A stretch of 64,000 nt of DNA from the IMG/VR virus record IMGVR_UViG_3300043640_000353, positions 2,645 through 66,644 of that record, one strand, 5' to 3'. The notes beneath the pieces are model-generated. The model had not been told where the DNA came from. It searched no databases and worked only from the letters and a program-made list of their open reading frames with translations. The translations under genes were made by a program, and so were the position numbers. The stretch's first letter is position 1. Every line of letters begins with the position of its first letter. This stretch comes from a virus. Of the stretch, positions 25,602 through 64,000 are shown piece by piece.

Positions 25602-26294
25602 CTATTTATTCTTTTTACTTTCAGATTTAGGTTTTGTATTATCCTTACCAATACCCTTAAAAACCCTATTAATAAAGGATTCATAAGGTACAATATCATT
25701 CTTATCCATTCTCACTGTGGAATGAGAATGGATACCTGGAACAATTGATTTTATTACTTTCTCATCAAATTCCCAAAATTCTGATTCTTCCCAAGTTGGT
25801 GGTAAAGGTATATTGAAATCGGCCATTAATTTATTGGTTAATTCAATGAGTGATTGGATTTGTTTATCAGTATAGGAATGGTAATATCTTTTACCTCTCC
25901 AACCTTTAATATCCATATCCCATACCTCATCTTTGGGAATTTCTTTTCCTGCTATTTTATTTGGGAAAAGAGGGTAAAACATAAATTTACCTGCTTCCAA
26001 TTGAAGATTTCCGGCCGATACAATTTCTATGCCTATAGATTGTTTTTCAATATGATCATCATCACCTTTAACACCAGCATGGTATGCCCAATTATTTGGA
26101 TCAAATGTTTGGTAAATTGTACCATCCCTATCAATGACAAAGGCAGTACCCACGTGTTCGGGTGTTTGATTCCACCAATCAATGGCTCCAGTAGCAGTTG
26201 TACCAGCCGTATGATGCCAGAAGATCATAGTTTTTTTATCCGCTTTGGGATAAAATTGGGTATTTTTTAGTTGTTTGGTTTTTACAATATTCAT
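25602..26294 (-). CDS. Endolysin, N-acetylmuramoyl-L-alanine amidase (Amidase_2)
   Basis: IFWHHTAG; AFVIDRDGTIYQ; WAYHAG; SIGIEI; IHSHSTVRMDKND. Confidence 0.92.
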   Translation of the reverse strand: MNIVKTKQLKNTQFYPKADKKTMIFWHHTAGTTATGAIDWWNQTPEHVGTAFVIDRDGTIYQTFDPNNWAYHAGVKGDDDHIEKQSIGIEIVSAGNLQLEAGKFMFYPLFPNKIAGKEIPKDEVWDMDIKGWRGKRYYHSYTDKQIQSLIELTNKLMADFNIPLPPTWEESEFWEFDEKVIKSIVPGIHSHSTVRMDKNDIVPYESFINRVFKGIGKDNTKPKSESKKNK

Positions 26295-27322
26295 TTTGAT
26301 TTTGATTTAAGTTTAACCTTCATTAAACAATCTGCAAACCATTGACCTATTTCATAAGGAGGGCATTTTGTTGCAGTTACCCTTGCTTTATTAATGCAAT
26401 ATTGGTCTTTGGCTTTATCATACCATAATTTAAAATCATCTGGAATCCCCTGTATGCGGGCTAATTCCCTCGGGGACATAATATCACCCTTCGAATTGAA
26501 TTGCCTGTTCTGTTTTCGGGCAGTTAATGGGTAAGAATTAGCCAAATTTCTATAAACCCCGGGTAAATTTTTCATATTACCTTTACCCGTGGTTGTGGCA
26601 TCCCATTTTTTTCTATCTTCATATTCCTTACTGTTCCAAATTTCCTTGATTTTAGTCAAGCTTAGTTTTTTAAAATCCTTTTCCATACAAACAATGGTAC
26701 TGGATTTTTCCCTTACATGACATAAATGAGGATTAGGATAAATAAGATTTGATTCTAGTTCCAAACATTTCTTTAATCTTCCATTTTGTTGGTTTAATTT
26801 AAAATCTTTAAGTTTAAATACATTCTTACCCTTCCTTATTCCAACTATTATTAACCTTTGCCTAGAAATTTGAGAATTACCAAATGCACTAACCGAAACA
26901 TGGTATTTAATCAGATTATATTTTGGGAATTGTTTATCAAATTCATTCTCGGGAAAGCTTTTAAATAGGGTTGTTAGATTTTCAAATAGGAAAATCTTGG
27001 GTTTAAATCTTTTAACAGACCTTAGAAATAATTTCATAGTGGCATCCTTTTTAGCATTACCCAATTTTTTACCTCGGGAATAAGCAAGAGAAGATGAATG
27101 ACCACATGTGGGATGGGATATGATTATATTGGGCTTTTTATTAAATTCCATAACTAAACCATCAGAATTATATAATTTTTTTTCACCAAAATTTAATTTC
27201 CATTGTACATCTCCGGGTGTTTTATAATCTGACCTTGTTTCAATTGCCCCCATAACATACTTTTTCAGGGGATGAATCATAACCCCATTACCCGTAGATA
27301 TACCCAATATTTTTAGCTTCAT
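26291..27322 (-). CDS. Divergent C5-cytosine DNA methyltransferase (likely start MKLKILG at 27322)
   Basis: Motif I STGNG, IV HPTCG, VI FENL, VIII QISRQRLIIVG, IX RELARIQGIPDDF, X CPP. Confidence 0.85.
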   Translation of the reverse strand: MKLKILGISTGNGVMIHPLKKYVMGAIETRSDYKTPGDVQWKLNFGEKKLYNSDGLVMEFNKKPNIIISHPTCGHSSSLAYSRGKKLGNAKKDATMKLFLRSVKRFKPKIFLFENLTTLFKSFPENEFDKQFPKYNLIKYHVSVSAFGNSQISRQRLIIVGIRKGKNVFKLKDFKLNQQNGRLKKCLELESNLIYPNPHLCHVREKSSTIVCMEKDFKKLSLTKIKEIWNSKEYEDRKKWDATTTGKGNMKNLPGVYRNLANSYPLTARKQNRQFNSKGDIMSPRELARIQGIPDDFKLWYDKAKDQYCINKARVTATKCPPYEIGQWFADCLMKVKLKSKSK

Positions 27323-27375
27323 ATTTTCTTGTTTAAGATTATATAAAATGGTATTGCTAATTACTATTACTATAA

Positions 27376-27711
27376 ATGCCAAAGATAATCATCCTGGGAC
27401 ATAAAAAAATATCTGGATACGCTGTTATAAGTGATAAATTTGGTGAAATCTATTTTAGCAAGGAAGAACTAAATGCACTTTATTTTAAACTTTACCTTGA
27501 AAATAATATAGGCATAGAATATTTATCCTGGAGTGAATTACAAAAACTAAAATTGATAAGGTACCAATTAAAAAAAAGAATTAAATCCCAATATGGAACT
27601 ACCAACCTGGGTAGTAAGTTTACTATTGAAAAAATAATGACCTATTATAAATATTATGAAACAAAACGAAAGAAAGGATCTTGGAGTAGGGATTTTGGTT
27701 ACAAAGAATAA
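27376..27711 (+). CDS. Hypothetical protein (111 aa)
   Basis: First ORF of the plus-strand block. Confidence 0.5.
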   Translation: MPKIIILGHKKISGYAVISDKFGEIYFSKEELNALYFKLYLENNIGIEYLSWSELQKLKLIRYQLKKRIKSQYGTTNLGSKFTIEKIMTYYKYYETKRKKGSWSRDFGYKE

Positions 27712-27958: not shown

Positions 27959-28639
27959 ATGAACGTATCCTTAGTGAGCTTAACCCAATCGCTCATAAAA
28001 AATGAAAGGGGAGAACAATTAAATCCTGAAGAGTTAATTGTTTATATTGCCCGGGTATCCAATCCGGGCAATCAAATGAATACCGAAACATCCAATAAGC
28101 TTATTGCTTACCTTATGAAAAACAAACACTGGAGTCCCCTAGAAATGGTGGATTTTACAATGGAAATTGTTACTTCTCGGGCCATTGCTGCGCAAATCCT
28201 AAGGCATTGGTCATTTAGTTTCCAGGAATTCTCTCAACGGTATGCCAAAGTAACTGAAATGGAACCCATCCAATTAAGATTACAGGCACAATCAAACCGG
28301 CAATCTTCCCTAGAAGAATGTAATCCAATCCTTAAAAACAATTCATCCGCCATGGATGCCATTAATGATTATTTACAAGCTGGCCAATCTTTATACAATC
28401 AATTATTGGATGCCGATGTTGCTAAGGAATGTGCTCGTATGATTTTACCATTAACTATTGGAACCAAAATTTATATGAAGGGTAGTGTAAGGGAGTGGGT
28501 TCATTATCTAACAACCCGTTGTGATTCTCATACCCAATTAGAACACAGGGAAATTGCCTTAGCTATTCAACAACATTTTATAACCTTATTCCCAAATATT
28601 TCTTCGGGGTTAAATTGGATATCAGATGCTAACGGATAA
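27959..28639 (+). CDS. thyX: Flavin-dependent thymidylate synthase
   Basis: HWSPLEM; RHWSFSFQEFSQRY (RHRx7SxR variant); KECARMILP; HTQLEHREIA. Confidence 0.95.
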   Translation: MNVSLVSLTQSLIKNERGEQLNPEELIVYIARVSNPGNQMNTETSNKLIAYLMKNKHWSPLEMVDFTMEIVTSRAIAAQILRHWSFSFQEFSQRYAKVTEMEPIQLRLQAQSNRQSSLEECNPILKNNSSAMDAINDYLQAGQSLYNQLLDADVAKECARMILPLTIGTKIYMKGSVREWVHYLTTRCDSHTQLEHREIALAIQQHFITLFPNISSGLNWISDANG

Positions 28640-54658: not shown

Positions 54659-55653
54659 GATGTTTTCAATGTTTTTATTAAGGCTATTCTTTTATCTTTA
54701 TCCTTTATACCCTTTTTCTTTAGGTAATTCTTGGCTATTTTTGTTTTGCTTTTGGTATTATCAAATCCCTTATCTACTATACCCATTTCCTTTTCCTTTT
54801 TGGGTTTTGGTATGTAAATATGAAAATTATCGGGGATTTCTTTTTTGGAATTATAATATTTGAATTCAGGTAAATTCAGGTTTACAAATTTGGGTTTATC
54901 TTTTTCATATATTTCCCAATAACCCATATCTATTCCCCTATCCCCAGCATTTTGTTGGTGGGTGGCACCTAACATATAAATGTTATTCCCCAATTGTTGT
55001 GGTTTGTGAATATGGCCACTTAATACCAGGTTAAAATCATTAAAATAGGTATTTATATCCTTAGGGATTTTCTTTACCTCCCCTATTTCAAATCCATAGC
55101 CATTTCTTGCCCCGGGTAAATCTGTATGTATTAGTAAAATTTTAAAGGCATCTTTATTATCCCGTATATCGGCAATAAATTTTTCCATATATACTTCGAA
55201 ACTTAGATTATGTGTTAGGTATGGGATGCCATAAACAAGAATTCTCTTGCCCATTGTTGGAATAATTTCTTTTTTCACTCCATCAATGCAATGGAAATGA
55301 TTAAATATATTTGAGAAGGATTTTATATAACTAGGTGATTTATGGTAATAGGTATTTTGCCTTGACATATCATGATCACCAGATATACCTATAAAATCCA
55401 CACCCAAATTTTCAAAGAATTCTTTGAAATATCCTATAAATTCCATAAGAATTTGATTATTTAGGCTTTTCCAATTATGAAATAAATCACCTGGGAATAA
55501 TACAGGTACCTTTAATTCTTTTGCCCTTAAGCCTATTATCTCTAGGGGTTTTAAAGAATTAAAAAGCCTATCCCCTTTATAGGAATAGGCATTCTCCCAT
55601 TGATGAATATGGGCATCTGCAAATGCCAAAGCTATTGGTTTATTTTTGTTCAT
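54655..55653 (-). CDS. sbcD: SbcD/Mre11/gp47-like nuclease
   Basis: ADAH; PGDLFH; SGDHD; SGHIH metallophosphoesterase motifs. Confidence 0.9.
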   Translation of the reverse strand: MNKNKPIALAFADAHIHQWENAYSYKGDRLFNSLKPLEIIGLRAKELKVPVLFPGDLFHNWKSLNNQILMEFIGYFKEFFENLGVDFIGISGDHDMSRQNTYYHKSPSYIKSFSNIFNHFHCIDGVKKEIIPTMGKRILVYGIPYLTHNLSFEVYMEKFIADIRDNKDAFKILLIHTDLPGARNGYGFEIGEVKKIPKDINTYFNDFNLVLSGHIHKPQQLGNNIYMLGATHQQNAGDRGIDMGYWEIYEKDKPKFVNLNLPEFKYYNSKKEIPDNFHIYIPKPKKEKEMGIVDKGFDNTKSKTKIAKNYLKKKGIKDKDKRIALIKTLKTS

Positions 55654-56242
55654 ATTCTTTGGAGATTGTTAATTTTACTAATTGCTTCCTTGTTTCCCAA
55701 TCCCATTTTTGTAACGTGTTACCTCTTAATTTCTTAAGCTCATTTACCATAAGGGTACATGAAAGATCAAATGCTTGGTTTGATAACATTTGATAGTACC
55801 TATTGTTTATTCTTTTACCATCATCTTCAAGAGGTATTTCTTTTGTAAAAGGTAATACAAATAAATAATTAAATTTACTTAAAGCCTTTTCACAATAGTG
55901 AATATACCTTGTGGTATCATTTTCAGGAAGTGAATGGGTATTTTGTAAAAGGAAATATGATAAGTTATCAACTGGTGACCTATCGGTTACAAAATTAACA
56001 TGACCCTTCAAGGCGTTTTCCCTAAATTCCAAAACCTCATGTTGAAATTGTAAACCCCAAACTGGGTCATGGGAAGCCCTTTCTAATAACATTAAATGAG
56101 ATTTTATCTTGTGTTTATCCCACAAAGGTTTTGTTGATGTAGTTATAAATGGTATTTTATACTCCTCGGAGATCCATTTCGCTAATGTGCTTTTACCGGT
56201 ACCACTTGGTCCAGCTAGGGCAATTCTTAAACTTAAATCCAT
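55640..56242 (-). CDS. P-loop nucleotide kinase-like protein (AAA_28/dNMP kinase-like)
   Basis: IALAGPSGTGKSTLA; FVTDRSPVDNLSY; PLEDDGKR. Confidence 0.8.
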   Translation of the reverse strand: MDLSLRIALAGPSGTGKSTLAKWISEEYKIPFITTSTKPLWDKHKIKSHLMLLERASHDPVWGLQFQHEVLEFRENALKGHVNFVTDRSPVDNLSYFLLQNTHSLPENDTTRYIHYCEKALSKFNYLFVLPFTKEIPLEDDGKRINNRYYQMLSNQAFDLSCTLMVNELKKLRGNTLQKWDWETRKQLVKLTISKEYEQK

Positions 56243-56246
56243 GATT

Positions 56247-57134
56247 TTATTTTTTGGGTTGGTAATTCTTTAAAAATTTACTTTCCTTAAATCCTTTAAC
56301 ATTATAAATCTTACACATTCTGAATAAGCTTTCCTGGTTAAACTTAGGGGTTTTATCGCCATTATAAAATTCAATTTTTTGGTTTCCTTTCAAATGTTTT
56401 TTATAAAAAAGCTTTAGATCAATTAGCTGCCTATTTAGCTTGTAAATGCTTCTTAGTTGATCTTTATCAATTTTTGCAAATGGTTTATCACTTTTTAAGA
56501 ATTTTTTTATACTAGAGAATTCCTGGATTATGCCACCCGCCTTAGCTGGACCAATACCCCTTAAACCTTTTATATTATCTGAACCATCCCCTATTAGGCA
56601 TAAATAATCTACACAATTTTTAGGTTCATAGCCATATTTTACTTTAAGATTATTTTTGTGAATTAAGTTCCTGGATGCGGTATTATAAACCTTAACATTG
56701 GATCTGATTAATTGATGAAAATCTTTATCTGTTGAGATAATTGTTATTTTGTTTTCCTTTTCCTTTTGGTATTTCCTTACCAACATATATATAAAATCAT
56801 CTGCCTCCATCTTGGGAGCAAAGAGTTGTTTTAATCCCAAAGAATAAAATATTTTCATAACCTCATCCCTTTGGTTATAGAATGCCTTTGCCTCTTCCTC
56901 AGTTTTAGTTTTTCTACCCGCTTTATATCCGGGATATAATCTTAATCTTATTGGTGATCTGTCTTTATCCCAGCAAATAAAAATCTTATCGGGTTTGAAT
57001 TGATTTATAAGGGTATTAACCAATACTGGCATACCATAGATTATTGATACCGGCTTACCTAGATTTTGTAATCTGGAATAGGCATGATATGCTCTATACA
57101 TGGTATTATTACCGTCAATGATTAAAATTTTCAT
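56247..57134 (-). CDS. 5'-3' exonuclease/flap endonuclease (T5 D15 / T4 RNase H family)
   Basis: IIDGNN; EADD; STDKDFHQL; GDGSDNIKGLRGIGPAKA. Confidence 0.93.
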   Translation of the reverse strand: MKILIIDGNNTMYRAYHAYSRLQNLGKPVSIIYGMPVLVNTLINQFKPDKIFICWDKDRSPIRLRLYPGYKAGRKTKTEEEAKAFYNQRDEVMKIFYSLGLKQLFAPKMEADDFIYMLVRKYQKEKENKITIISTDKDFHQLIRSNVKVYNTASRNLIHKNNLKVKYGYEPKNCVDYLCLIGDGSDNIKGLRGIGPAKAGGIIQEFSSIKKFLKSDKPFAKIDKDQLRSIYKLNRQLIDLKLFYKKHLKGNQKIEFYNGDKTPKFNQESLFRMCKIYNVKGFKESKFLKNYQPKK

Positions 57135-57643
57135 GTTGAATATTTAAAGGTATAATTTCCTATCTTTAATTTTTTCCTGGCTGATTTACGGATTTTAGAA
57201 GCCGATATACCTAAAGCTAGGGATGCTGCTTTGGGTGACTCATAAATATTTTCTTTATTATTATGGATGTCAAATACTACCAAACCTTTTGTAGATGTTT
57301 TCAAACTTGCTTTCTCCTGCCATCTTTGTAAATATCCCCGGTAAAAAGTTAAAGCTTTTTTGGAAGACCATTTTAGGTTTGAGAAATGGTTATTGGTTTT
57401 ATTACCATCCAGGTGAATGATACAGTTGTATCTTTTAGGATCCTTATTACCTATAAAATTGTAAGCAACTAATTTATCTACCCTTTTCTCAATGGGTTTT
57501 TTATCCCTAATAAGGGAGACAAACATATAACCCGTTTTACCCAACTTTAATGGTAAGGTCATACCTTGTCTATTGGTTATTATCCCAGAAGGGGTTATAG
57601 CATAATCATTACCATAACCCCTTAAATTTTTAATCACCATCAT
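57131..57643 (-). mobile_element. Free-standing HNH homing endonuclease with C-terminal NUMOD1-like domain
   Basis: VDKLVAYNFI...HLDGNKTNNHFSNLKW; YESPKAASLALGISASKIRK. Confidence 0.85.
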
Positions 57644-60346: not shown

Positions 60347-62530
60347 TTACTTTGTGTAATCATTTTCCTTATTGTATTTCTTTAAGGATGCCCAATTATG
60401 CCCCACCTCAAAATCAACTGCCATCTTAACCTTTTTCATACTAAATCCAAACCATCTTTGGGTTTGGGGATTTTCACATATACCATTTATGATAGGAACA
60501 GCCTCATGTATAAATTTGGGTTTAATTAAAAAACCCAATGAATCATGAACTGTATAAATTTGCTCTAACCCCCATTTCTGTTTCTTATGCTTTGTGATAT
60601 ACTCATCTATAAGGATGGATGAAAAGAAAGCAAAATCTGAAGCTGTACCCTGTATTGGTGCATTAATACTTTGTCTTTCTGCCTCTGCCCTTTTTCCATT
60701 CTCAGATGAGTATATATTGGGTAACCTTCTTTTTCTACCAAAGAATGTTTTTACAAAACCATTCCTTTTTGCTTTAGCCCTTTGGGATTTCATAAATTTA
60801 CCTATATTGGGAAAGTCATGATTAAAATCATCCAGAAATTCCTGGGCTTCTTCTTGGGATACAATTATGGCTGGTGTTATTATTTCACCTTGATTATTAT
60901 ATTTAGCCGATTCAGATAAACCCAATGCCAATTTTTTGGCAGTTTGGCAATATATAATACCGAAGTTAATTGTTTTGGCTTGTTTCCTTCGTCTTTTCCA
61001 GATTTTATAATCCTTATGATTTTCATCATCTAGGATTTTCTTAGCCTTATGATAATCATAAGAATATTTTTTACAAGCAGATGCCAAGTGGATATCTTTA
61101 CCCGATGAAAACCATTCTAACATGGATTTTTCATTTGCGGCTTCTGCCATTACTCTAAGTTCAGCTTGGGAATAATCTATCTGTAATAATAAACATCCCC
61201 GGTCAGCTATAAACATTTTCTTTATCTTGGCAGCATCCTCATTATCTCCCCTAGGAATATTTTGTAGGTTAGGATCGCCACATGATAATCTTCCGGTTAC
61301 TGTGCCATGAATTTTAAAATTGGCATGTATCCTATTATCCTCTGTAACATGGGTTTTCATGCCCACCATATACGTAGAATAAAGTTTAGATAGACCTCTA
61401 TGATCAAGTAATTGAGCTAAGAATCCCTTTTTATCGTAGGGTCTTAGCATCTCAAGTGTATCTTCGTCAGTTGATGGCCTATCTGTATCCTGTTTGGTTA
61501 ATTTATTTTTGGTATATCTTACAATCGGAAATTTTAAACCATGGGGTGAGTTATAGAAAAAATCTATTAATTGGTTAGGTGATGAGAAATTAAATGGCTC
61601 CATTAATTTTCTTTCCTTTTGGTTAGTAAATTGCCCCGCCGCTAATTTACTAACTTTTTCTTCCCTCGACTTAATTAATCGGGGGGCATTTGGTTTACCC
61701 TCATCTTCTATAGTTAAAATTTCTTCTTTTACCTTTTTTATAAGGTTTTTTATTTTTACCTTAACTATCTTTTTCTCGTATTTTCTTAACTCAATATGGT
61801 TTCTCATATTCAGCTCGTTATCCTCTATTTTTATTTTGTATTGGGCAATAAGCTTATCAAGATATTTGGTATTTACCTTTATACCTTTAAATTCTGATTT
61901 GGCAAGTACATTGCTTCCTCTCATTATAAGGTTTCTAAATAATGGGTATAGTCCAGTTTTAATTAACCGGGGTTCAAAATAACACATTAATCTCAAACAT
62001 AAATCACAATCTAGAGCATTACGATCGCATAATTCTTTTAAGGGTATTCCAGCCCATCCATGTACCCTAGCTAATTGTTCTGTATCATCTTTGTAATCCT
62101 GATAATCTGGTAATAACCTAGCTACTATGGAACCCAAATCATTTGGTCTTTCCTCATCTAATAGGTATTTAGCTAACATGGCATCAAAACATCTACCTTT
62201 ATATTTAACACCATATCTCATTACCCATTTCTCCTCAAATTTAAAATTCCAGGCAATTTTAATTATTTCTGGATCCTCAAATAATTCAGTGGATATTTTC
62301 TTTAAGATTTCTGGGTATATTTTTTTAAATTTGGATTCACTATGGCCTAAAGGTATTATATAGGCACTACCTATTTGAAAGGAAATACCTATAATGGTGG
62401 GATATTCATTTTTATTAGCAAATGATCCACCGGAGGTTTCAAAATCATGTGAGCAATATTTAGTTTCCTTACACCAAGCAATTACCTGATCAATTTCCTC
62501 TAAGGTTTCAACAATTTTATAACTTGCCAT
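60347..62530 (-). CDS. polA: DNA polymerase family A with 3'-5' exonuclease domain
   Basis: Exo HDFET; TGRLSCGDPNLQNIP; motif A DYSQAELR; motif B KTINFGIIY; motif C VHDS. Confidence 0.97.
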   Translation of the reverse strand: MASYKIVETLEEIDQVIAWCKETKYCSHDFETSGGSFANKNEYPTIIGISFQIGSAYIIPLGHSESKFKKIYPEILKKISTELFEDPEIIKIAWNFKFEEKWVMRYGVKYKGRCFDAMLAKYLLDEERPNDLGSIVARLLPDYQDYKDDTEQLARVHGWAGIPLKELCDRNALDCDLCLRLMCYFEPRLIKTGLYPLFRNLIMRGSNVLAKSEFKGIKVNTKYLDKLIAQYKIKIEDNELNMRNHIELRKYEKKIVKVKIKNLIKKVKEEILTIEDEGKPNAPRLIKSREEKVSKLAAGQFTNQKERKLMEPFNFSSPNQLIDFFYNSPHGLKFPIVRYTKNKLTKQDTDRPSTDEDTLEMLRPYDKKGFLAQLLDHRGLSKLYSTYMVGMKTHVTEDNRIHANFKIHGTVTGRLSCGDPNLQNIPRGDNEDAAKIKKMFIADRGCLLLQIDYSQAELRVMAEAANEKSMLEWFSSGKDIHLASACKKYSYDYHKAKKILDDENHKDYKIWKRRRKQAKTINFGIIYCQTAKKLALGLSESAKYNNQGEIITPAIIVSQEEAQEFLDDFNHDFPNIGKFMKSQRAKAKRNGFVKTFFGRKRRLPNIYSSENGKRAEAERQSINAPIQGTASDFAFFSSILIDEYITKHKKQKWGLEQIYTVHDSLGFLIKPKFIHEAVPIINGICENPQTQRWFGFSMKKVKMAVDFEVGHNWASLKKYNKENDYTK

Positions 62531-62945
62531 ATTTTTCTATTTTGACCCCGTTAAATTCCAAATACAATAATCCTTCCTTATCCCGGAATTCTTCTTTATA
62601 TACCACCCTTAATATACCAGATTGTACTATCAATTCAGCACATTTTAAACAGGGAGAATGGGTAGTATAAAGTATTGAACCTTCTAAAGGTATTCCCTTC
62701 TTAGCGCTAAATGAGATGGCATTTGCTTCTGCATGTATGGATTTGTTACAGGGTTTTAATTTATCACAATTACATATATTACCTGATCTTTCTATTTTGG
62801 TAGGACCATTATAGCCAGATACTATAATCCTACCCTCATTGGTTATTGTACACCCAACTTGTAATCTACCGCATGGGGACCTTTTACTAAATAATTCAGC
62901 AACTTGGATGTATAGATCATCCCTGGATATCCGATTTTCACTCAT
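62517..62945 (-). CDS. dCMP deaminase
   Basis: SGYNG; HAEANAI; SPCLKC. Confidence 0.93.
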   Translation of the reverse strand: MSENRISRDDLYIQVAELFSKRSPCGRLQVGCTITNEGRIIVSGYNGPTKIERSGNICNCDKLKPCNKSIHAEANAISFSAKKGIPLEGSILYTTHSPCLKCAELIVQSGILRVVYKEEFRDKEGLLYLEFNGVKIEKYGKL

Positions 62946-63754
62946 TTTTTTTTATGACGTTTTAACATTTCGAATTCATTCTCAAAAATATGTAATGAGG
63001 TAATATGCATGGTAAATATTCCGGGTTTAACATTTTCCCAATATTTGGAACCCATAGCCAATTCATTTATTAACCATATAACCTTGCGTACCGCAAGATA
63101 TATATCATCCCTAAAATGCCTTAGATAATCACATGATCTAATATGGTAAACTATATGGAGATAGTTATCTCTACGAATAAAATGATAACCTATCGTGCAA
63201 GGTATTCTTCCCCCATGAACTGCACCTGTATCTTCGGGAAAAAATATAGGCAGATATGCCTGCCTTGTAAAAGGTTCTTTTCCTAAAAGCCTTATTAAAT
63301 CATTTAAATCGCCATATTCATATCTTATACCCTTTAATGGCTCAAGTTCATGTCCCTCAGCATAAACACCTTCTATACCCGCATATTTTGGCCAAATACG
63401 TTCCATATATGAATGGGTAAATTTCTCATCTACATTTCTCATTTCCTTATCCATTTTATAGAAAGGCCAAAGTTTATAGGTTTTACCCGGGTTTACTGGA
63501 AATCCATTTACCCTCTCTTCAAAATGCCTATCTGCCCATGGCAGATTTGGTTTTACTTGAGCCATTAATTCCGCCAGATTATTGGGCATGAAAACCTTAA
63601 AAGAAGTATTAAGTGTTTCCCTCATATCATGTTCTAAAGGTATGCCTTGCCATTTTTCTGTTCTTATTACATAGGATTCTTCAATAAGTTTTTCCCTTAC
63701 AAATTCTATGGCATCATTGAAATTGTTAAAATATTCGAGTTTCATATATAACAT
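62942..63754 (-). CDS. Thymidylate-synthase-fold enzyme with dCMP-type active site (candidate pyrimidine-modifying enzyme)
   Basis: TRQA; catalytic IPCT; RSCDYLRHFRDD (Asp at the E. coli ThyA Asn177 position, His at Gly173); SLHIF. Confidence 0.85.
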   Translation of the reverse strand: MLYMKLEYFNNFNDAIEFVREKLIEESYVIRTEKWQGIPLEHDMRETLNTSFKVFMPNNLAELMAQVKPNLPWADRHFEERVNGFPVNPGKTYKLWPFYKMDKEMRNVDEKFTHSYMERIWPKYAGIEGVYAEGHELEPLKGIRYEYGDLNDLIRLLGKEPFTRQAYLPIFFPEDTGAVHGGRIPCTIGYHFIRRDNYLHIVYHIRSCDYLRHFRDDIYLAVRKVIWLINELAMGSKYWENVKPGIFTMHITSLHIFENEFEMLKRHKKK

Positions 63755-63762
63755 TATATAGT

Positions 63763-64000
63763 TTACATTTTAACCTTGTTTTTATTCCCAACTGATCTTT
63801 CCCAATAAAAACCCTTGGCCGTTATTCGTTGATGTTTTTTACTTGCCGTTTTAGTTTTCCTTAAGCACTTGCTTATATTTGACCCTCCAATATTTATACC
63901 AATTTTGGATAATTCTCTTACAGCATGAGCCGTGCTTAAGAAATTTAAGGATTCACCAGTAATTATGTTGGTAGCTTTTATGGGTATGGCATTATGTACA
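63763..64000 (-). mobile_element. C-terminal fragment of a probable homing endonuclease (NUMOD1/IENR1 domain); gene starts beyond the window
   Basis: Translated by hand: ...IKATNIITGESLNFLSTAHAVRELSKIGINIGGSNISKCLRKTK...TAKGFYWERSV..., stop at 63763. Confidence 0.65.

Follow-up and report, generated by a model that had tools for sequence, protein, structure and literature searches.

A thymidylate synthase homologue of a soil phage as a candidate dCMP-modifying enzyme within a T4-like gene cassette

Gene content of the locus

The 64,000-nucleotide stretch of viral DNA analysed here (the window) comprises bases 2645-66644 of the 73.8-kb linear IMG/VR record IMGVR_UViG_3300043640_000353, which derives from a soil metagenome and has a CheckV completeness of 87%. 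Near its end lies a gene for a protein of the thymidylate synthase (TS) superfamily, designated TS1, whose active-site residues and gene context point to modification of deoxycytidine monophosphate (dCMP) before DNA replication, as a first-pass annotation of the sequence had proposed. A second protein, TS2, is encoded just past the window end. Among the sequencing runs searched, the TS1 region was found only in the source soil metagenome, as contigs. The principal genes are listed below, in window coordinates unless a genome position is given.

62942..63754, minus strand: TS1, cytosine-type TS-superfamily enzyme (alignment, PHROG_160, clade profile)
62517..62945, minus strand: dCMP deaminase, 142 amino acids (PF00383, 8.8e-22)
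60347..62530, minus strand: PolA, family A DNA polymerase with a 3'-5' exonuclease domain (PF00476, 5e-86; PF01612, 1.1e-12)
57131-57643: HNH endonuclease gene, between RecA and the 5'-3' exonuclease
55640..56242, minus strand: P-loop protein resembling deoxynucleoside monophosphate (dNMP) kinases, 200 amino acids (PHROG_2107 'thymidylate kinase', 8.7e-13)
63763-64000, continuing to window-equivalent 64359 (genome 66407-67003), minus strand: GIY-YIG homing-endonuclease-like gene, 198 amino acids (N-terminal IY...YIG motif)
Genome 66996-67937, ~350 bp past the window end, same strand as TS1: TS2, 313 amino acids (TS fold by model)

The stop codon of TS1 and the start codon of the deaminase share the sequence ATGA, and the end of the deaminase gene overlaps the start of the PolA gene by 14 nt; the three proteins are thus probably co-translated. 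These overlaps, together with Pfam and PHROG matches, confirm the earlier placement of a dCMP deaminase, PolA and a P-loop kinase in the same region. Among solved structures, the deaminase is matched best by the dCMP deaminase of cyanophage S-TIM5 (4p9c, 1.4e-23), followed by 2hvv, T4 cd (1vq2) and the PBCV-1 protein (7fh4). The dNMP-kinase-like protein also matches AAA_28 (5.8e-8), dNK (6.1e-6) and Cytidylate_kin (1.1e-4) in Pfam, yields P-loop matches only when compared with solved structures, and occupies the same place in syntenic relatives.

Upstream of TS1, on the same strand, the gene order is DnaB, primase, an unassigned protein of 291 amino acids, an SNF2-type helicase, unassigned proteins of 147 and 258 amino acids, a nucleoside triphosphate (NTP) pyrophosphatase of 155 amino acids, an unassigned protein of 108 amino acids, TS2, the GIY-YIG gene and TS1 itself. 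Downstream, it is dCMP deaminase, PolA, a gp32-like single-stranded DNA-binding protein, RecA, HNH, 5'-3' exonuclease, dNMP-kinase-like protein, SbcCD and resolvase. The pyrophosphatase, ~1.8 kb upstream of TS1, is of the all-alpha MazG/dUTPase_2 type (PHROG_173, 2.9e-15) and homologous to a dUTPase_2-family protein of Serratia phage Serbin; it provides a candidate for the dCTPase that the first-pass annotation had suggested looking for in the rest of the genome.

Relatives at 57-70% identity are syntenic with the TS1 cassette gene for gene, and the cassette core is common to Serbin and to the Manatee Spring phage MW202777, the latter also carrying ThyX. Besides Serbin, cultured carriers of the cassette include Pseudomonas phage PMBT14, Gordonia phage GTE2 and Mycobacterium phage FF47/Muddy. 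The cassette genes of 258 (genome 68708-69484, minus strand), 147 and 291 amino acids correspond to proteins of 265-273, 147-152 and 283-288 amino acids in relatives and have no family match. A 273-amino-acid relative of the first shows a faint dUTPase_2 match, and a second NTP pyrophosphatase in the cassette is therefore possible.

In MetaGPA data, a TS homologue is present no more than 3 kb away from 70% of the dCMP deaminases found on cytosine-modified contigs, versus 6% of those on unmodified contigs, and the combination of a TS with Asp at position 177 (E. coli numbering, used throughout), an in-cis dCMP deaminase, a PRA-PH-type pyrophosphatase and PolA is tied to cytosine-modified phage DNA (PMC8670742; bioRxiv 10.1101/2024.12.05.627091). 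The present locus has the same make-up, with a deaminase gene overlapping TS1, a PolA gene overlapping the deaminase gene and a pyrophosphatase nearby.

Membership of TS1 in the thymidylate synthase superfamily

The TS1 open reading frame (62942-63754, minus strand) encodes 270 amino acids, and its translation contains ...GGRIPCTIGYHF... and ...HIRSCDYLRHFRDDIYL...; the true start is likely the second ATG (M4, 63745), which lines up with the conserved N-terminal Met of the family. The superfamily hallmarks are present as P185-C186 followed, ~20 residues on, by R206-S207-C208-D209, and the loop that ends in D217 reads Y-L-R-H-F-R-D-D. The E. coli ThyA and T4 gp42 references that we fetched read YQRSCDVFLGLPFN and MRSNDVVFGFRND, respectively, in agreement with the letters quoted in the first-pass annotation. 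The offset between TS1 and E. coli ThyA is a constant +40, gap-free from Cys to Asp, and the same register was obtained from HMMER alignments to MilA and 9iqu. Translation and alignment thus bear out the catalytic Cys, the RSCD motif, Asp in place of Asn177, His in place of Gly173 and Thr in place of the PCH His. The active-site geometry discussed below was deduced from alignment alone. The correspondence of residues, with conservation counted over 86 representatives of the TS1 clade, is as follows.

Position 143: R183 in TS1, L in E. coli; Arg in 86/86
Position 146: C186 in TS1, C in E. coli; Cys in 85/86
Position 147: T187 in TS1, H in E. coli; Thr/Ser in 85/86
Position 165: I205 in TS1, Q in E. 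coli; Ile/Leu/Met in 84/86
Positions 166 and 167: R206 and S207 in TS1, R and S in E. coli
Position 169: D209 in TS1, D in E. coli; Asp in 83/86
Position 172: R212 in TS1, L in E. coli; Arg/Lys in 78/86
Position 173: H213 in TS1, G in E. coli; His in 78/86
Position 175: R215 in TS1, P in E. coli
Position 177: D217 in TS1, N in E. coli; Asp in 85/86
Position 209: Phe in 76/86
Further signature of TS1: R206-S207-C208-D209 and H255-x-F257

As a single sequence, TS1 scores 21.5 bits against Pfam PF00303 (E 1.4e-4), under the gathering score of 24.3, and matches PHROG_160 at 6.2e-28. The profile built from its clade matches 52 solved TS-family sequences in the Protein Data Bank (PDB), from MilA (3.5e-10) down to E. 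coli TS (3e-4) and including 9iqu (2.1e-8, the longest alignment), L. casei TS (1.4e-7) and T4 dCMP hydroxymethylase (8.2e-6). TS1 is a member of the TS superfamily by both fold and family; its N-terminal half carries motifs of its own, PWAxxHFxER and FxHxYxERxWP.

Size, spread and signature of the TS1 clade

Relatives of TS1 number more than 3000 at E <=1e-5 in a collection clustered at 90%, and form 758 clusters at 50% identity. Matches occur in 135 deposited phage genomes (Gordonia, Mycobacterium, Serratia, Pseudomonas, Streptomyces, Clostridium and others), where nearly all are labelled 'thymidylate synthase' in GenBank. The Pro-Cys and Arg-Ser-x-Asp motifs are kept in 81-86 of the 86 representatives, and the tail after the His207 equivalent has 15 residues in TS1 and a median of 17 in the clade, compared with 57 in E. 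coli ThyA. The features of TS1 thus mark a viral clade (PHROG_160) that is large and highly conserved, and are not a quirk of a single gene. The concern that bona fide ThyA enzymes might commonly carry His173 together with Asp177 does not hold, as the combination marks a separate clade.

All of the characterised enzymes compared, namely T4 gp42, the Xp12 enzyme, RB69 gp48, the SPO1, M6 and ViI enzymes and ThyA, fall outside this clade. Protein searches with TS1 returned T4 gp42 at 24% identity over ~108 residues and the Xp12 enzyme at 23% over 115, and gave no match to the SPO1, M6 or ViI enzymes.

Many relatives of TS1 are 360-636 amino acids long and match it in two stretches, with the break near TS1 residue 105-110, a pattern suggestive of inserts, either inteins or extra domains, that recur at one site. 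A subclade of 258-279 amino acids (~53% identity) was found on three NCBI metagenome contigs of 26-328 kb, always directly downstream of a metallophosphoesterase gene and with no TS2 or deaminase gene nearby. These contigs are viral and carry genes for PolB, topoisomerase, ATP-grasp, RNase HII, IMPDH and large glycosyltransferases.

Substrate: cytosine or uracil

Substrate-determining positions were compared in an alignment of eight reference enzymes, three acting on cytosine (T4 gp42, RB69 gp48, Xp12) and five on deoxyuridine monophosphate (dUMP; E. coli ThyA, RB69 td, SPO1 gp29, M6, ViI). At positions 147, 165 and 177 the cytosine enzymes differ from every one of the uracil enzymes: the former have Thr or Pro at 147, a hydrophobic residue at 165 and Asp at 177, and TS1 reads Thr, Ile and Asp. 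Published work has established that exchange of Asn177 for Asp turns TS specificity from dUMP to dCMP, and in a comparison of 433 metavirome TS homologues positions 177 and 147 showed the two strongest associations with modification (eLife 2021, PMC8670742). TS1 has Asp217 where canonical ThyA has Asn177, and Thr187, Ile205, Arg183 and a short tail in place of His147, Gln165, Leu143 and the long C-terminal tail. In ThyA that tail closes off the folate site so that hydride transfer can take place. Because positions 147, 165 and 177 read Thr, Ile and Asp, it is highly probable, taking together the explanation that we favour and three of the alternatives weighed below, that TS1 acts on a cytosine nucleotide. 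With the gene context, the same residues sustain the first-pass view of TS1 as a cytosine-type homologue and not a redundant synthase of deoxythymidine monophosphate (dTMP), and its assignment as a dCMP-modifying enzyme is well supported.

The remaining alternative, which we consider very unlikely, is that TS1 acts on uracil, either as a divergent dUMP-to-dTMP synthase or as a dUMP hydroxymethylase fed by the deaminase according to the logic of SPO1, yielding thymine or 5-hydroxymethyluracil. The downstream dCMP deaminase would equally serve a dUMP-consuming enzyme, the TRQA and YxER motifs are common to TS1 and SPO1 gp29, and the top profile score belongs to the ViI dUMP hydroxymethylase (against the TS1 clade, ViI scores 45.9 bits, Xp12 42.0, RB69 gp48 36.9, SPO1 34.5 and T4 28.5). 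Against this stand the near-invariant Asp177, the lack of an Asn one residue on (the position used by M6 and ViI), cytosine-type residues at 147 and 165, the presence of ThyX, and the absence from the annotated record of any recognised thymidine-hypermodification gene of the 5-HMUDK or aGPT type.

Cofactor and reaction product

Several folate-related residues are retained across the TS1 clade: Asp169 in 83/86 representatives, and Glu80, Tyr116 (equivalent to Tyr94) and Trp96 in 85/86 each. Glu80 lies in the helix that would be expected to carry Glu58 and is likely its equivalent. The position of T4 Arg177, which in T4 dCMP hydroxymethylase binds the glutamate tail of tetrahydrofolate, is Arg in TS1 and Arg or Lys in 53/86, and the T4 enzyme likewise lacks a C-terminal tail yet uses folate. 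Together, these retained residues favour folate-dependent one-carbon transfer by TS1, and run counter to the first-pass suggestion that the His at 173 might signal folate-independent chemistry.

Such chemistry, for instance flavin-dependent C5 hydroxylation as in AfhB or RB69 gp48, has in its favour the Phe at the Tyr209 position, the H-x-F-E-x-x-F ending and the very short C-terminal tail that TS1 has in common with RB69 gp48 and 9iqu. We nonetheless regard it as very unlikely: the exchange of Asp169 for Asn, which marks the flavin-dependent 5-hydroxy-dCMP synthases (PMC13326640) and occurs in all of those tested, is missing in TS1, position 143 is Arg and not Glu, and the folate-using T4 enzyme has no C-terminal tail either.

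Position 143 bears directly on the product. In T4 the corresponding Asp145 activates the substrate water (PMC6400193), and Asp or Glu occupies this position in 5/5 of the hydroxymethylases and hydroxylases compared (T4, SPO1, M6, ViI, RB69 gp48); ThyA has Leu, the Xp12 methylase Asn and TS1 the invariant Arg183. TS1 shares with gp42-type enzymes the Asp at 177 (T4 Asp179) as D217 and lacks their acidic residue at 143, and with the Xp12-type dCMP methyltransferase (23% identity) it likewise shares Asp177 and differs at 143. By alignment, Arg183 would be flanked in space by the equivalents of Arg172 and His173. Water activation could fall to His213, leading to a hydroxymethyl product, or the basic pocket could hold something else instead. 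The product (hydroxymethyl, methyl or other) is not callable from sequence. We know of no agreed sequence determinant that parts Xp12-type methylases from hydroxymethylases.

A second TS-fold protein, TS2

TS2 has 226 relatives and no sequence match in Pfam, PHROGs, NCBIfam or the PDB, where a profile search returned chance matches only. An AlphaFold model computed with an alignment reached a pLDDT of 91.7 (34.5 when folded from the single sequence), and all of its top Foldseek matches in the PDB were TS-superfamily structures (E 6.5e-6, probability 1.00). By VIA-align, the model superposes on the dCMP hydroxylase AfhB (9iqu) with Z 13.9 over 183 aligned residues (root-mean-square deviation 4.0), on MilA with Z 12.8 and on ThyA with Z ~10, and 395 TS-family chains reach Z >=8. 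The invariant Cys126, Arg148, Glu151 and Asp159 of TS2 are colinear with Cys146, Arg166, Asp169 and Asn177. The modelled structure thus establishes a TS fold for TS2, and its kinship with TS1 is seen in structure only (hhalign probability 2.7%).

In the syntenic relatives at 57-70% identity TS2 directly adjoins TS1, and in Serbin a distant TS2 (E 0.005) is the open reading frame directly upstream of TS1. In the present phage the GIY-YIG gene, which has no counterpart in these relatives and scores 0.0015 against Pfam GIY-YIG, under the cut-off, is inserted between the two. TS2 was detectable upstream of TS1 at only ~7 of 80 IMG/VR TS1 loci. Since TS1 mostly occurs without TS2, it is probably a self-sufficient enzyme, to which TS2 has been added in certain lineages only. 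Prediction of a complex of TS1 and TS2 gave a score of 0.00, which is no evidence either way on a heterodimer.

The pairing raises the possibility, which we judge unlikely, of a two-step route to a new cytosine derivative, in which TS1 would add a one-carbon unit at C5 and TS2 would re-attack C6, so that the resulting exocyclic methylene takes another nucleophile. In a variant of similarly low likelihood, the Arg183/Arg212/His213 pocket of TS1 would itself recruit an anionic nucleophile, the product being neither 5-methylcytosine (5mC) nor 5-hydroxymethylcytosine (5hmC) nor 5-hydroxycytosine (5hoC). Consistent with such a route are the TS fold of TS2, its Cys, Arg, Glu and Asp at catalytic positions with Asp at 177, its adjacency to TS1, and the combination of Arg143, Arg172 and His173, which none of the characterised TS homologues compared shows; capture of an exocyclic methylene by other nucleophiles is, moreover, established chemistry in thymidine hypermodification. 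It is less easily reconciled with the occurrence of TS1 without TS2 at most of the 80 IMG/VR loci and in the large PolB contigs, and with a relation between the two proteins that is invisible to profile comparison. If this route were correct, the TS1/TS2 pair would furnish this soil phage, and cultured phages with the same pair, with a C5 substituent that is new and is installed before replication.

ThyX, a DNA methyltransferase and genome composition

Two further genes, remote from the cassette, bear on thymidylate supply and on the state of cytosine in the DNA.

27959..28639, plus strand: ThyX (PF02511, Thy1, 2.2e-46)
26291..27382, minus strand: DNA cytosine-C5 methyltransferase homologue (PF00145, 1.3e-18; TIGR00675 dcm, 6.9e-14, under the cut-off)

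The first-pass annotation held that a complete ThyX supplies dTMP. The gene is real, but its signature is RHW(X)7S and not RHR(X)7S. Of its 120 closest homologues, which show 61-68% identity and include cellular ThyX of Bacteroidota, 117 have RHR. RHW occurs in one other of the 120, beside a MazG-like gene, as well as in the distantly related ThyX of MW202777, a carrier of the same TS1 cassette. Because RHW replaces RHR, the role of ThyX as the dTMP source is presumed and not shown.

ThyX also bears on a further alternative, a thymidylate bypass, in which TS1 would make 5-methyl-dCMP and the deaminase would turn 5-methyl-deoxycytidine nucleotides into thymidine nucleotides, a route that has been put forward for Xp12 and mSCD-B5. 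We consider this decidedly unlikely and, with it, the corollary that virion DNA is canonical or contains 5mC as in Xp12. The translational coupling of TS1 to the deaminase (ATGA) would suit it, as would the annotation of TS1 as the sole thymidylate synthase in most GenBank phages that carry it; furthermore, 5/7 of the deaminase-linked Asp177 TS homologues tested made 5-methyl-dCMP, and their deaminases acted on 5mC or 5hmC nucleotides. Those enzymes were, however, chosen by a PF00303 match below 1e-7, which the TS1 clade does not reach, and probably belong to other branches; the closest solved relatives of the present deaminase are ordinary dCMP deaminases, and a separate ThyX, both here and in MW202777, makes the bypass redundant.

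The methyltransferase gene adjoins that of a lysis amidase. TGCA, GATC and GGCC are under-represented in the genome record (observed/expected 0.51-0.65); restriction-site avoidance was considered as a proxy for unmodified cytosine and rejected as non-discriminating, given that T4, with fully glucosylated hydroxymethylcytosine, avoids GATC more strongly (0.33). The record also shows strong CpG depletion (observed/expected 0.45) with no excess of TpG/CpA (0.98); T4 and Xp12 show no such depletion (0.94 and 1.02).

Proposed pathway and its significance

The explanation that we favour, with somewhat better than even confidence, is that TS1 is a folate-dependent, cytosine-specific TS-superfamily enzyme that modifies dCMP at C5 before replication, within a T4-like cassette. 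Cys186 would attack C6 of dCMP, Asp217 would protonate N3 in the manner of Asp179 in T4 dCMP hydroxymethylase, and the one-carbon unit of methylene-tetrahydrofolate would be added at C5, with an invariant Arg183/His213 pair in place of the water-activating Asp and a Gly of T4. The most likely product would be 5-hydroxymethyl-dCMP or 5-methyl-dCMP. The MazG/dUTPase_2-type pyrophosphatase may return dCTP to dCMP, the dNMP-kinase-like protein may phosphorylate the modified nucleotide, and the phage PolA, which would incorporate it, would have to accept modified dCTP. The deaminase and ThyX would supply dTMP separately, and in this phage lineage TS2 would form part of the module. The analysis shows the fold and family of TS1, its active-site residues, the operon structure, the conserved synteny and the TS fold of TS2; for TS1 we infer substrate, cofactor and product, and for the virion DNA that it is modified.

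Several observations weigh against this explanation. The literature searched (including Muddy, PaMx74 and clade motifs in supplements) yielded no measured activity for any member of the clade. Overall profile scores place the clade at about the same distance from uracil and cytosine enzymes, so that the substrate call depends on a few residues and gene context. With Arg at 143, TS1 cannot simply be assumed to follow the hydroxymethylation mechanism of T4. The dNMP-kinase-like protein and the pyrophosphatase are candidates only, respectively for the kinase of modified dCMP and for a dCTPase-type enzyme. No glycosyltransferase, which the first-pass annotation had also suggested seeking, nor any carbamoyltransferase, TET, 5-HMUDK or other tailoring gene was recognised in the annotated record. 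Finally, the C5-methyltransferase would be left without substrate if every cytosine were already substituted at C5.

The description of the pathway as new goes too far: the kind of pathway is known, and only the enzyme branch to which TS1 belongs is uncharacterised. What is new here is a widespread TS branch with an Arg143/His173/Asp177 signature and, in this lineage, its cryptic TS-fold partner TS2, which would add a new functional type to a classic enzyme fold. Given the 'thymidylate synthase' labels and a Pfam score below the threshold used in published screens, the product of a TS1-clade enzyme has probably never been measured. Base modifications of phage DNA decide escape from restriction, CRISPR and other defences, and have yielded useful enzymes such as 5hmC tools and 5mC-selective deaminases. 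Should TS1 modify cytosine, a non-canonical base may have gone unnoticed in many cultured phages of Gordonia, Mycobacterium, Serratia, Pseudomonas and Clostridium.

Comparison with characterised systems

Among solved structures, the best profile match of TS1 is MilA, the CMP 5-hydroxymethylase of mildiomycin (5b6d, 5jnh), in which Asp177 falls in the same register. MilA differs in its place in bacterial secondary metabolism, its ribonucleotide substrate and its Asp at position 143, and it aligns with no more of TS1 than the C-terminal core (residues 144-260). The group of AfhB, RB69 gp48 and DLP3 gp80 (PMC13326640; 9iqu, 9iqc), which is also the best structural match of TS2, shares with TS1 a cytosine-type TS fold, Thr147, Phe209 and a short C-terminus; TS1 differs in keeping Asp169 and in having Arg143 in place of Glu and His173 in place of Val.

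The cassettes described by MetaGPA, including those with dCMP methylases of the Xp12/PaMx74 type, have an identical neighbourhood signature and the same discriminating residues at 177 and 147. The TS1 clade lies below the PF00303 threshold, and the 1e-7 PF00303 filter used in mining IMG/VR would exclude it. The TS1 phage has ThyX, so that no deaminative route to deoxythymidine triphosphate is needed.

In the T4 pathway, gp42 is the dCMP hydroxymethylase, gp56 the dCTPase/dUTPase, gp1 the dNMP kinase, cd the dCMP deaminase and td the thymidylate synthase. The present phage differs from T4 in the Arg that replaces Asp145 and the His that replaces Gly175 in TS1, in having ThyX for td and PolA for PolB, and in an extra TS-fold gene with no glucosyltransferase recognised. 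TS1 nevertheless resembles gp42 in its Cys nucleophile, Asp177, Thr147, hydrophobic residue at 165, F-R-[ND]-D loop, which reads F-R-N-D in T4, and short C-terminus, and the same set of roles is represented around it: pyrophosphatase, dNMP kinase, deaminase and a separate dTMP synthase.

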